A stretch of DNA of 4,550 nucleotides from a virus (taxonomy: Duplodnaviria > Heunggongvirae > Uroviricota > Caudoviricetes). Under the pieces are notes generated by a model. It did not search any database, was not told the DNA's origin, and saw only the letters and a program-made list of their open reading frames with translations. Both the position numbers and the translations under genes were made by a program. The DNA is taken from the IMG/VR virus record IMGVR_UViG_2547132270_000007; one strand, 5' to 3'. This document shows, piece by piece, positions 1-3,906 of the stretch (positions are counted from its first letter, which is position 1; each line of letters begins with the position of its first letter).

Positions 1-265
1 GCATCACAAAATTCACTTTAAAAAGGGCGGACATCAGCCGAACTTCAAGAAAAAAACTGATGCCGCCAGGACTACACACAGCAATGTCGTTATTCACAAC
101 CGGATGCGCACTCCCACCATTTAAATTTAACAGACAAGACCGACTCTTTATGGATATCGGAAATGCGCCTTCGTGTTGTGCCCGGTTTTATTTCACCACC
201 TCCGGGCTTTGGTGGCCTCGGCTATACCCCTACAGCGAGAATATTGAATTAATCCAAATAATGGA

Positions 266-752: not shown

Positions 753-780
753 AAAAAAAACCGCCAGGGATGGCGGTTTA
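753..780 (-). terminator. Rho-independent terminator downstream of the repressor gene (hairpin is symmetric, may act on both strands)
   Basis: Stem CCGCCA (761-766), loop GGGA, stem TGGCGG (771-776), flanked by an A8 run (753-760) that is a U8 tail on the minus strand and by TTTA on the plus strand. Lies about 20 nt past the repressor stop (799-801). Confidence 0.7.
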
Positions 781-1367: not shown

Positions 1368-1643
1368 ATGACATTAGATGAATATTTGAAAAAAAATCGT
1401 GTACGACAGTCTTGTTTGGCCGCGCTGGCTGGTTGTTCGCAATCAATGATTAGCCTCGTTGCTACTGGACGTAGTCAGTTAAGCCCTGAAAAGGTATTGC
1501 GTATCGCAGAGGCTACGAATTTCGAGGTTACACCTCATGAACTCCGGCCTGATATCTACCCGAATCCGACCGATGGTTTACCTGTTGGATGTAAGGCTAA
1601 CACACAAAATGCACAGGAGTTGATTCATGAAAATCAGGCATGA
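1368..1643 (+). CDS. ydaS: Cro-like HTH regulator, YdaS family, 91 aa
   Basis: ORF track 1341-1643. Preferred start is ATG 1368 with SD AAGGTGA (1356-1362) 5 nt upstream; the TTG at 1341 would fall inside the predicted promoter. HTH region QSCLAALAGCSQSMISLVATGRSQLS. First rightward gene after the divergent promoter; overlaps the next gene by 17 nt. Confidence 0.85.
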   Translation: MTLDEYLKKNRVRQSCLAALAGCSQSMISLVATGRSQLSPEKVLRIAEATNFEVTPHELRPDIYPNPTDGLPVGCKANTQNAQELIHENQA

Positions 1644-2068: not shown

Positions 2069-2482
2069 ATGAAAATCAAACCGTTTATCAATGCTGGAAA
2101 TCTTACTCCCGGCGAACTACGAGACTGGATCCTGAAACTTGCAAAAAATGCAGAAATTGCGGGTTGGGGTACAGAAACTTCGGTTCGGAAGCTTCAGAGC
2201 GCAGAACTTAGCCTGCGCTCAGTTATGGACGATTTATCCCCAAGAATTAATTTTCTGGGGTCAGAGCAAATAATTCGTTCGGAAGGTCACTCCAGCGAAG
2301 TTGCGGAAGTTCTGAATACTCTGAGGATAACTTTTGCTGCCGTTCGCGATATTCAACGAACCATTCTCTCATTGATTTCTCAGCTTCAAGAAATTGATAG
2401 TCGCATTCCTGACGGGGGGCATAGAGAGCGTCTTCCAGAATGTGAAGAGCAAGGACAGGGGAAACAGATAAGGGATCAGTAA
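2069..2482 (+). CDS. Hypothetical protein, 137 aa, no family recognised (conflicts with antisense ORF 2247-2702)
   Basis: ATG 19 nt after the ydaT stop, weak SD-like AGGGT 8 nt upstream. Predicted helical protein with acidic C-terminal tail. Around 10 percent rare codons (ATA, AGG, AGA, CGA, GGG). Overlaps the minus-strand ORF by 236 bp, so at most one is likely to be real. Confidence 0.4.
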   Translation: MKIKPFINAGNLTPGELRDWILKLAKNAEIAGWGTETSVRKLQSAELSLRSVMDDLSPRINFLGSEQIIRSEGHSSEVAEVLNTLRITFAAVRDIQRTILSLISQLQEIDSRIPDGGHRERLPECEEQGQGKQIRDQ

Positions 2483-2702
2483 TACGTTTTTCACTTGCCT
2501 GGTATAGCAATCTCGCCAGCGAATCATAGCTACTGGGGCTCAGGAGAGAATCCCGTGAGTGATTTGTAAGAATCAGGTGGAAGCGGGTGAGAACTATAGC
2601 CCTGCATGTTACCAGGTTAACCATGTCGTGGTCGTGCTGGTTAATTTTGTACACAGTGCGCATGTGATTTTTAATTTTTTGGCAAACAGCCATTAAAGAC
2701 AT
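2247..2702 (-). CDS. Hypothetical protein, 151 aa, His/Cys-rich N-terminus, no family recognised; antisense to the early operon
   Basis: Near-consensus SD AAGGAGG (+2709-2715) exactly 6 nt before the ATG (+2700-2702). Perfect TATAAT on the minus strand (+2742-2747) upstream. Fewer rare codons than the overlapping + ORF. Its first 73 codons lie in a region with no plus-strand ORF. Perfect 8-bp hairpin (2197-2220) lies 27 nt past its stop. Confidence 0.5.
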   Translation of the reverse strand: MSLMAVCQKIKNHMRTVYKINQHDHDMVNLVTCRAIVLTRFHLILTNHSRDSLLSPSSYDSLARLLYQASEKRITDPLSVSPVLALHILEDALYAPRQECDYQFLEAEKSMREWFVEYRERQQKLSSEYSELPQLRWSDLPNELFALTPEN

Positions 2703-2765
2703 GTCGAACCTCCTTTGGTTCTGTTGATTGGGGAATCACAGATTATATCCGGAGGAAGGTTCGAC
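2703..2765. promoter_or_regulatory. Inverted-repeat control region between the antisense ORF and the replication initiator
   Basis: 9-bp perfect inverted repeat GTCGAACCT (2703-2711) and AGGTTCGAC (2757-2765), 45 nt apart. It brackets the minus-strand TATAAT (2742-2747); the left arm is the SD-to-start spacer of the minus ORF and the right arm adjoins a plus-strand GGAGG (2751-2755). Confidence 0.35.
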
Positions 2766-2781
2766 ACCAGATGAGGCAATT

Positions 2782-3906
2782 ATGGTTAAGGCTAAAAACA
2801 TGCCAAATCCCATGCCAAAAACTAAGGCAAACAATGAGCCTTATCGCAAGGTAAAAATAACGATATGGGATGATCCCAAATTTAGGGCGTTATCTCCTCT
2901 GCCTCCAAGTGGACAGAGTTTGTTTATTTATCTGCTGACCAGTCCATTTACCGGGATTATTCCCGGGTTGTTTAAAGCCGGGCGGGCAGCAATGGCTGAA
3001 GAGTTGGGGTGGGATATTGAAGCCTTTGACTTAGCCTTAGGCGAAGCCATGAAGCTTGGCATGGTGAAAGCAGATATCAAAGCCAGAGTTTTTTGGCTCC
3101 CGAATGCTGCGAAACACAATCCGCCAAACTCGATAAATGTCATTAAATCTTGGGCAAAGGCATTCGCTTTAATTCCTGATTGCCCTCTCAAATGGGAGGC
3201 CAGGGAATCGCTGAGAGCGGCGTCCTACGGGGTTTCTGAGGCTTTGGGGATGGCATTCGATAAGGCAATCCCTTTGCCTGAGGATAAGCCTAAGGATAAG
3301 GCTAACGCTTTGTCATGCGGTATCCAGATAACAGATAACAGATATATAAACCCCACACATAACGCGCGCGTGCGCGAGAGTGCTCTGACCAGTGAGTCGA
3401 ATGATTTGCCGTTACAGGCAGCGGAACCTGATTACCTGGAAGGCCTGAGCGAACCCATCGGGAAATTTCCGATGACCGATGGCTGGCATCCGTCGCCGGA
3501 TTTCCGACGGCGGGCTGCACTGTGGGGAGTGGCTCTGCCGGAGCCGGAATTTACACCTGCTGAACTTGCCGCCTTCCGGGACTACTGGGCAGCGGAGGGG
3601 AAAGTTTTCACGCAGGTTCAGTGGGAGCAGAAATTCGCCCGTCACGTAAATCACGTCAGGGCGCAGGTTAAACCAGTCAGCAAGGGGGTGAACCATGCAG
3701 CAGCACCAGGTGGCACCGCATCACGGGCAGTTCAGGAAATTCGGGCAGCACGTGAGCAGTGGGAACGTGAAAACGGATTTATCCGCGACGGAAACGGCGT
3801 GGAAGCTGTGGGAACTCATGGGGGAGGTTTATTCGAACCGCTGGACCCAGAAGAACGGGGCCGCACCTTCGAAGCTCTGGATTGCACAGATTGGCGCGAT
3901 GACTGA
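2782..3906 (+). CDS. Phage replication initiation protein with DnaT-like C-terminal domain, about 374 aa
   Basis: ORF track 2728-3906 begins at a TTG with no SD. Preferred start is in-frame ATG 2782 with GAGG 5 nt upstream (ATG 2800 is an alternative). N-terminal region WDDPKFRALS...LFIYLLT looks like a phage replisome-organiser DNA-binding domain; a low-complexity linker follows; then a DnaT-like motif (WHPSPDF...FRDYWAAEGKVFTQVQWEQKFARHV). Sits immediately upstream of a lambda-P-like gene. Confidence 0.85.
   Translation: MVKAKNMPNPMPKTKANNEPYRKVKITIWDDPKFRALSPLPPSGQSLFIYLLTSPFTGIIPGLFKAGRAAMAEELGWDIEAFDLALGEAMKLGMVKADIKARVFWLPNAAKHNPPNSINVIKSWAKAFALIPDCPLKWEARESLRAASYGVSEALGMAFDKAIPLPEDKPKDKANALSCGIQITDNRYINPTHNARVRESALTSESNDLPLQAAEPDYLEGLSEPIGKFPMTDGWHPSPDFRRRAALWGVALPEPEFTPAELAAFRDYWAAEGKVFTQVQWEQKFARHVNHVRAQVKPVSKGVNHAAAPGGTASRAVQEIRAAREQWERENGFIRDGNGVEAVGTHGGGLFEPLDPEERGRTFEALDCTDWRDD
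3259..3380. repeat. Origin-like repeat cluster inside the initiator gene linker (candidate ori)
   Basis: GATAAGGC (3259-3266); tandem GGATAAGCCTAA / GGATAAGGCTAA (3282-3305); tandem CAGATAA CAGATAA CAGATAT (3325-3345); AT-rich TATATAAA; then an alternating CG tract CGCGCGCGTGCGCG (3363-3376). The order (iterons, AT-rich, GC-rich) parallels lambda ori, which lies within the O gene. Confidence 0.4.

Follow-up and report, generated by a model that had tools for sequence, protein, structure and literature searches.

The locus analysed here raises the question of what a 151-amino-acid (aa) open reading frame (ORF) is doing on the minus strand between the immunity and replication genes of a prophage, where it opposes the early operon. 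The ORF lies in a 4,550-nucleotide (nt) stretch of DNA (the whole of which is referred to as the window) from the virus record IMGVR_UViG_2547132270_000007 (Caudoviricetes). The original prediction treated it, here called gene M, as an autonomously expressed cassette with strong signals of its own, a possible metal site in its product and an arrangement reminiscent of morons and prophage-encoded defence or exclusion genes; it missed a 137-aa plus-strand ORF (gene P, 2069–2482) that overlaps gene M at 2247–2482. Sequence comparison indicates that gene P, gene M and the leader of gene M form a three-part module; in temperate phages, both Rac-type and other, it lies between the lysis–lysogeny switch and the replication genes. 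The reading that best explains the data, to which we assign a probability of roughly 0.55, is that of a conserved module in which gene M is expressed in the lysogen and is coupled antagonistically to the early operon.

Gene M

The minus-strand ORF (2247–2702) is present as predicted, and comparison with its relatives marks it as a true protein-coding gene, with a family of its own and purifying selection in its frame. Its homologues in Salmonella, Serratia, Trabulsiella and IMG/VR contigs all have 151 residues, with no insertions or deletions, down to 44–50% identity, and an exhaustive HMMER search extended the family to ∼26% identity (148–159 aa); a scan of genome contigs returned one locus, from Trabulsiella. 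The family is recognized by a C-terminal hallmark motif, LPELxWSDLPxELF. The ratio of nonsynonymous to synonymous differences per site (pN/pS) in the minus frame is 0.40–0.53, in the overlap and in the minus-only part alike; within 2483–2699 it is 0.45–0.52, compared with 0.9–1.15 in the non-coding frames. Variability at the three codon positions follows the pattern 3 > 1 > 2 (72/49/93 in 2483–2699 and 43/39/81 in 2250–2479). In synonymous shuffles with the P protein held fixed, the similarity of the M frame lies at z = 23 above random and the probability that the frame is open is 0.003–0.02 per lineage. Independent gene callers also choose this ORF, and its orientation opposite to the early operon (cro/ydaS–ydaT to replication), to which the original prediction drew attention, is constant in three different phage backbones.

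The M and P families are both acidic (median pI ∼5.3), soluble and all-helical. Scans of the two proteins against Pfam, NCBIfam, PHROGs and PADLOC yielded no informative family, with no PADLOC defence-model match for either; a profile search against PDB sequences returned only a designed helical filament and other noise, and enzymatic or membrane features were found in neither protein. The proposed metal site in the M protein is not borne out by its homologues. The first 35 residues contain three His and two Cys, but Cys7, His13, His23 and His25 vary among homologues at 48–89% identity, and Cys33, the only His or Cys kept in these close homologues, is variable in remote members. One M protein, from a single E. 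coli genome (P0004), carries a compensated double frameshift in residues 128–140, with VFRTSATSLRVIF replacing EYSELPQLRWSDL; the frameshifted segment is inside the overlap and the conserved motif and represents either a sequencing error or a degraded copy.

Gene P

Gene P (2069–2482, plus strand) encodes a 137-aa acidic helical protein and, in the rightward operon, comes last among the small genes that follow ydaT. In a 99.7% identical E. coli genome it is the sole ORF annotated here by the Prokaryotic Genome Annotation Pipeline (PGAP), and its product matches phrog_37051, a PHROG without known function, over the full length of the profile (137/137 positions). An indexed protein search found relatives only at ≥85% identity; by profile search the family extends to gene calls from Klebsiella, Salmonella and E. 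coli at 42–57% identity (118–173 aa). Gene P was initially expected to be a shadow ORF, an expectation that was countered by loci at ∼60% nucleotide identity. At these loci the frame is uninterrupted and has an ATG in the corresponding place, good Shine–Dalgarno (SD) sites are found (AGGAGG in L034 and AAGGAGG in L008; L numbers denote loci) and the protein conserves the pattern KPxINAGxLxPxEL..W…SAExSLR…RINFLxSDQIIRS.

The conserved core of the P protein extends from residue 1 to about 112 and is followed by a variable, disordered tail. The first 59 codons occupy what appears to be a spacer 3′ of gene M, and in this segment (2072–2246) the plus frame has a pN/pS of 0.42–0.59 with the position pattern 3 > 1 > 2, compared with 0.9–1.1 for the minus frame. 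The AlphaFold2 model of the P protein is a helical hairpin with a mean predicted local distance difference test (pLDDT) score of 74, exceeding 90 in parts, and a disordered tail; helix 72–112, which is encoded in the overlap, packs on helix 35–64, which is mostly encoded outside it. A Foldseek search of the PDB with this model returned only generic coiled-coil hairpins (best E = 0.25). These comparisons indicate that gene P is a real gene.

The antiparallel overlap

The two genes share 236 nt (2247–2482, about 78 codons) in an antiparallel 3′–3′ coding overlap, in which position 1 of the plus frame faces position 1 of the minus frame, position 2 faces position 3 and position 3 faces position 2. 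Given each M protein, synonymous shuffling predicts 1.6–2.7 plus-frame stops in the overlap and a probability of 0.03–0.15 per lineage that the frame is open; no such stop occurs in any lineage, except that in L005 the terminal stop comes slightly earlier. The plus frame of the minus-only region contains 0–7 stops against 4–9 expected, which is near or somewhat below expectation. For remote pairs the probability of an open plus frame in the overlap is 0.0003–0.06; over the whole set of lineages, remote ones included, the expected number of stops per lineage ranges from 1.6 to 4.8.

In pairs with ∼93% nucleotide identity both frames show a pN/pS of about 0.55 in the overlap (0.56 for the plus frame), and the plus frame rises to 1.13 just outside it. 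The synonymous component of the minus frame (pS) is reduced from 0.72 to 0.54 in the overlap, which has the lowest substitution rate of the three regions compared, and plus-frame identity exceeds the synonymous-shuffle expectation by 0.20 in the overlap versus 0.11 in the control region. Across the overlap, coding by the minus frame is clear from these comparisons and the support for the plus frame is good but indirect; genuine dual coding of the 236 nt is, in our judgement, likely. The SD motifs of the two genes are consistent with expression of both strands.

Conservation and age of the pair

Both ORFs are intact and conserved across divergent relatives. Each of the 13 distinct M-family genes located behind the leader is accompanied by a P-family partner in the identical relative frame, which does not fit the isolated moron originally envisaged. 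In L044 and L045, where the M protein is ∼30% identical to that of the window, the leader is shared and a convergent P homologue of 125–139 aa overlaps gene M by 194–236 nt with the frame kept. In L009 (1728–2504; Trabulsiella guamensis) 258 codons of the partner frame are free of stops, which may reflect fusion to an upstream ORF.

A similar arrangement is found for genes of the ECs1072 family (NF033230), which occupy the slot between ydaT and the replication gene on the minus strand, behind the same leader, and are overlapped by convergent ORFs by 140–323 nt in the relative frame seen in the window; one of these partner ORFs matches the P-family profile (E = 2e-5). Across relatives and ECs1072-family loci together, the overlap spans ∼140–320 nt. 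The M protein of the window gave no match to the NF033230 hidden Markov model at E ≤ 1 (curated cutoff 70 bits; true members score 100–164 bits) and no BLASTP match to an ECs1072 protein. The remote M-family members P0024, P0026, P0029 and P0034 matched the model at E = 5e-7 to 7e-4, below threshold, and an hhalign comparison of A3 with A9 was collinear but weak (E = 4.8e-4, probability 32%). The M protein is probably a distant relative of the ECs1072 family. In EKP1, an isolated phage, a distinct 92-aa cargo family follows the leader and is overlapped by 216 nt by an annotated gene in the cII position. As far as these loci can be compared, it is the architecture, beyond one protein family, that is conserved.

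The EKP1 record (OM284015.1, ‘Elizabethkingia phage EKP1’; L168, 3009–3501) has an enterobacterial-type leader and its host attribution looks odd; the 92-aa leftward ORF (3067–3345) is unannotated and the annotated convergent gene lies at 3130–3462. Other cargo behind the leader in IMG/VR loci L048–L167 encodes proteins of 97/99, 77/83, 88 and 75 aa with no Pfam match, and many of these loci have long convergent candidate antisense ORFs, such as one that overlaps a 97-aa cargo by 273 nt.

The gene pair is almost absent from isolated phages: a tblastn search against them found one dubious record with the M protein and no match with the ECs1072 protein. That record, L001 (PP818812.1, ‘Actinobacillus phage vB_Apl-pPE4’), is the only isolated-phage record with the module, and both overlapping ORFs are annotated in it. 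It is 98.5–100% identical to E. coli Rac-type prophage DNA over the whole region, so its stated Actinobacillus host looks doubtful.

The leader of gene M

The leader and promoter block (2703–2772, minus strand) comprises TGGTG(T/C)CGAACC (2772–2761), a −10-like element (TATAAT/TAATCT, 2747–2740), an inner palindrome (2741–2721) and AGAACCAAAGGAGGTTCGAC (2722–2703), which contains the SD. At every locus this segment of ∼70 nt surpasses the genes in conservation, regardless of which cargo or which divergent replication gene flanks it, and it precedes several unrelated cargo families. A census of IMG/VR with the 16-mer AAGGAGGTTCGACATG gave at least 120 matches, and at least 84 loci carry this sequence together with the 5′ motif, in about 30 variants.

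The predicted signals are evident in the sequence itself, namely AAGGAGG at a distance of 6 nt from the start codon (CCTCCTT at 2709–2715; ATG at 2702–2700) and a perfect TATAAT on the minus strand (ATTATA at 2742–2747). The SD–ATG block does not vary among 26 distinct leaders. All 39 distinct upstream regions contain a TAnn[ACT]T element that retains T1, A2 and T6 of a −10 hexamer and lies 10–12 nt after GGTGCCGAACC and 36–39 nt before the ATG; TATAAT is the version found in the E. coli group, shifted by 2 nt. Conservation of this element supports an internal promoter and a 5′ untranslated region of ∼30 nt. The missing −35 and the missing U-tract after the hairpin, both conceded in the original prediction, agree with consensus scans, which listed no promoter at the TATAAT, the −35 being absent, and no terminator at the hairpin; promoter-like sites in the window are no more frequent than in shuffled sequences. 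Of the autonomous cassette there remain a conserved ribosome-binding site, the −10-like element and a portable upstream block; a solitary cassette is contradicted by a convergent partner that is always present and by the 236-nt overlap.

At the −35 position there is an invariant TGGTGCCGAACC, which is unlike TTGACA and is complementary to the SD–start segment. The full leader block folds at −27.8 kcal/mol (z = −4.3), and an alternative local hairpin would place the SD in an exposed loop. One position of the long-range anti-SD stem is U·A in the window, C·A in most loci and C·G in EKP1. The EKP1 leader, with GUUCGGC, restores a perfect pair with the 5′ arm, and the arms of the L009 leader show several paired differences (CUGA/UCAG compared with CGAA/UUCG in the window). 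Rfam searches at E ≤ 1 found nothing for the leader or for the hairpin at 2197–2220 described below.

Other candidate signals were considered here. A σ70-like sequence, TTGGCA-16-CATAAT (2779–2806, minus strand; 10/12 match), lies inside the start of the replication gene, and a transcript from it would include the conserved leader from its 5′ edge onward; it was rejected as a general promoter, being confined to window-type loci (5 of 39 distinct upstream regions). A LexA box (CTGT-N8-ACAG) and σ54, σE and σ32 motifs, sought by eye in the leader, were rejected on misfits in spacing or core bases. In L044 and related loci, several variants of the leader include TTTTCCACA or ATTTCCACA, both matches to the DnaA-box consensus TTWTNCACA; these DnaA-box-like matches are in the variable inner leader, beside replication genes.

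YdaT-type half-sites

The operator of YdaT, the CII analogue, is TTGATT-N6-AATCAA and is located at the ydaS/ydaT junction (PMC9986795, PMC11879457). The window contains a match to this published consensus at the same junction (TTGATTcatgaaAATCAg, with an N6 spacer; 1620–1637, plus strand) and a second YdaT-type half-site pair with an N4 spacer between the −10 element and the SD of gene M (TTGATTggggAATCA; 2724–2738, plus strand), that is, two pairs versus 0.07 expected. The leader pair accompanies ydaT-bearing loci (which have the N6 box), including one with a different ydaT allele, and is absent from the ydaT-less loci L005–L009. This distribution suggests that YdaT may act on the gene M promoter.

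The hairpin downstream of gene M

The predicted 8 bp hairpin, which begins 27 nt after the gene M stop, can likewise be read from the sequence (2197–2220, minus strand; GC-rich, 8–9 bp; arms GAGCGCAG at 2197–2204 and CTGCGCTC at 2213–2220). Its interpretation as a terminator does not hold up. It is located inside gene P, in the codons for SAELSLRS (the conserved SAE-SLR motif), and it is lost in one lineage (L034) which retains the peptide with other codons. It is followed by no U-tract on either strand (tail UGAAGCUU) and the terminator scan did not list the site; a proper U-tract is present in no lineage, with a short UUUU run in L005. The region folds at −27.2 kcal/mol (z = −3.4 compared with shuffles), and the hairpin is kept at this position in four of five deep lineages, with one possible compensatory change. 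The hairpin is not a canonical terminator; it may be a 3′-end stabilizing or processing element of the M mRNA or partly a by-product of the peptide motif.

Genomic setting

The window corresponds to the immunity and replication region in a lambdoid prophage of the Rac/CP-933P type. Its minus strand contains a DUF1391/ydfA-like ORF (266–427; E = 2e-28), a 44-aa ORF with a UBA-like domain (429–563; PF14555, E = 4e-5) that is probably ydfB-like and, on the same strand as gene M, a cI/RacR-like helix–turn–helix repressor gene (799–1263; PF01381). The plus strand carries ydaS, the Cro analogue (1368–1643; PF15943, E = 2.2e-10), ydaT (1627–2049; PF06254, E = 1.7e-11), a gene for a replication protein with a DnaT DNA-binding domain that is divergent from gene M (2782–3906; PF17948, E = 4e-18) and a gene encoding a λP-like protein. 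The M/P locus is situated between ydaT and the replication gene. Near-identical DNA is present in 22 of 5,426 complete E. coli genomes, and the stretch around 2695–2780 by itself is common to a further 36.

A DicF-like small RNA match (25–80, minus strand; RF00039, 39.1 bits, below the gathering score of 48, E = 4e-6) lies downstream of the ydfA/ydfB-like genes in the leftward operon, as in the Qin/Rac dicBF operons. An intrinsic terminator with a 9 bp stem followed by T8 (758–779, minus strand), just 3′ of the cI-like repressor gene, is the sole canonical one near the immunity region. PGAP places the start of the DnaT-domain gene ∼210 nt later (L002, 3943; position 2992 of the window); the phage record and L003 have it at the ATG at 2782, which is preceded by GAGG. 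The RefSeq start of this gene is probably mis-called.

Proposed mechanism and alternatives

In the proposed mechanism, gene M would be transcribed leftward from the leader promoter when rightward pR-type transcription is low, i.e. in the lysogen. Its mRNA would be the complement of the P mRNA over the 3′ third of the latter and, having no real terminator, may run on as RNA antisense to ydaT and ydaS as well as to P. In the lytic cycle, transcription from pR would have to cross gene M head-on in order to reach the replication genes. The two units would then antagonize each other through transcriptional interference and RNA duplex formation, in the manner of λ oop on cII, and in ydaT-bearing prophages the half-site pair suggests that the CII analogue may also act on the M promoter. 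The M and P proteins would probably be protein-binding partners or antagonists; our leading guesses for their function are that they exclude other phages or modulate the switch or replication. In a microarray study of a Sakai lysogen, the signal of an ECs1072 probe was regulated (PMC2241611); this concerns a relative rather than gene M and lends weak support, by analogy, to expression in the lysogen.

Several observations weigh against this reading. Outside the E. coli group TATAAT itself is not kept, and there is no recognizable −35, the best candidate found by eye matching TTGACA at two of six positions. The half-sites in the leader are spaced by N4 and those of the characterized operator by N6. 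The long-range anti-SD stem is 85% paired and shows no clean compensatory change; covariation was not found in it because both arms are nearly invariant. Neither protein matches a family of known function, a defence model, a solved structure or an informative fold. In deep pairs the plus-frame pN/pS in the overlap is 1.07 and variability tracks the minus frame, so that protein-level constraint on the overlapped part of P rests on four lines: the openness of the ORF, the ∼93%-identity pairs (0.56), the larger similarity excess than in the control region and the structure model.

A more far-reaching version, to which we give somewhat less than even odds, is that the pair is an ancient dual-coding unit predating the split between the ECs1072 and M families and acting as a lysogenic–replicative toggle, with the leader as a portable platform whose SD is masked by the anti-SD. 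Convergent transcription, the RNA duplex and the two proteins would keep both genes together, and temperate enterobacterial phages would use the leader for diverse leftward cargo beside their replication genes.

Gene M might instead be a moron-like defence or superinfection-exclusion gene expressed in the lysogen, with P, from the lytic operon, as its antidote or counter-regulator. The defence or exclusion role floated in the original prediction is possible in this form, though we consider it unlikely. Several unrelated cargo families follow the leader at one slot, as at known defence hotspots; gene M opposes the early operon, differs in GC content (0.445 versus 0.50–0.54 in its flanks) and diverges fast in protein sequence between conserved flanks; and its relative ECs1072 gives a probe signal in the lysogen. 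There is also a precedent in phage Fc02, in which antisense-overlapping lysis–lysogeny genes confer exclusion (PMC9936078). This proposal has to contend with the lack of any functional match in PADLOC, Pfam or PHROG and of enzymatic or membrane features, and with the near absence of the module from isolated phages.

Slightly less probable still is that only the minus gene codes across the overlap, the plus ORF being real to about codon 59 (2069–2246) or not at all and its continuation to 2482 being a tolerated read-through tail or a shadow ORF shaped by M. The deep comparisons fit this, with variability in 2250–2479 (43/39/81) governed by the minus frame and the plus-frame pN/pS at 1.07; the last ∼25 residues of P, for which disorder is predicted, differ among homologues in both length and sequence, and the probability of an open frame by chance in any one lineage is only as low as 0.03–0.15. 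Yet the frame is open in all of more than eight independent lineages, including the 30%-identity and ECs1072-type loci, with the position of the P stop roughly conserved. A read-through tail also sits poorly with the contrast between 0.56 in the overlap and 1.13 just outside it in the ∼93%-identity pairs, with the reduced minus-frame pS and with the confidently modelled helix 72–112 that packs on 35–64.

It is improbable that the leftward promoter mainly yields a regulatory RNA, with the protein secondary. Such an RNA would be an antisense transcript of the oop or pRE/paQ kind, acting either to silence P, ydaT and ydaS or to feed repressor synthesis. Map position and orientation are those of λ oop, no real terminator follows gene M, a cI-like gene lies downstream on the same strand and the leader contains YdaT-type half-sites; in CP-933P, YdaT drives a leftward promoter and the YdaT box is downstream of that promoter (PMC9986795). 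The clear purifying selection on the M protein and its invariant strong SD argue that translation matters, and ydaT-less loci retain the module. The PGAP view that the plus ORF is the sole gene and gene M a chance antisense ORF, for which the lone annotation of 2069–2482 and the full-length phrog_37051 match can be cited, is already contradicted by a minus-strand family of constant length down to 26% identity, by purifying selection in the minus frame that includes 2483–2699 (where the plus frame is full of stops), by the invariant SD–ATG, by the low probability of an open minus frame with P fixed and by the independent gene callers.

Comparison with known systems

The preferred reading, a conserved convergent module with gene M expressed in the lysogen, has parallels in several described systems. 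One is the ECs1072 family, whose genes share the slot, the strand, a similar length (145–156 aa), the leader, the identical first codons and the convergent 3′ partner of gene M; the C-terminal motif differs, being PPxSxxEWD there and LPELxWSDLPxELF in M. PGAP keeps the plus gene at window-type loci and the minus gene at ECs1072-type loci and never both, which exposes a systematic annotation loss in which half of a convergent pair is routinely dropped.

In phage λ, the leftward oop RNA is transcribed from pO and is antisense to cII. As proposed for the M locus, a leftward transcript from a short spacer before the replication gene covers the 3′ end of the last regulatory gene transcribed rightward. 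The λ transcript is a 77-nt non-coding RNA with a proper terminator, whereas gene M encodes a 151-aa protein and shares with P a 236-nt overlap that probably codes on both strands; there is no sequence similarity between the two loci and no Rfam match. The leader with its convergent pair is an undescribed, widespread element (at least 84 viral contigs) at the immunity/replication boundary of Rac-type prophages, in the position where λ sets oop RNA against cII, and its leader is a candidate second target for YdaT.

Lambdoid morons and defence hotspots resemble gene M in placing a separately signalled leftward gene in a rightward operon, with variable cargo between conserved flanks; gene M differs in having no terminator-bounded cassette, a probably dual-coding partner that is always present and no defence-model match. 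In the Pseudomonas beetrevirus Fc02 (olg1/olg2 and gene 10), exclusion activity was shown experimentally (PMC9936078). There, too, a lytic-operon gene beside the cro/ner analogue overlaps antisense a repressor-strand gene in the lysis–lysogeny region (PMC9936078). The proteins and the phage type are unrelated, and the Fc02 study was not aimed at whether the pair is deeply conserved.

Long antiparallel coding overlaps in bacteria and phages are disputed, and most proposed cases are young embedded ORFs with ribosome profiling only. The antisense genes of E. coli O157 (nog1, laoB, asa, pop and ano among others) are likewise non-trivial antiparallel overlaps discarded by annotation pipelines; they are mostly young, embedded in an older gene and supported by Ribo-seq, whereas M and P overlap 3′–3′, appear to be similarly old and have deep comparative support. 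With conserved non-overlapped halves and an overlap that persists to ∼30% protein identity, the M/P pair offers a clean comparative test case.

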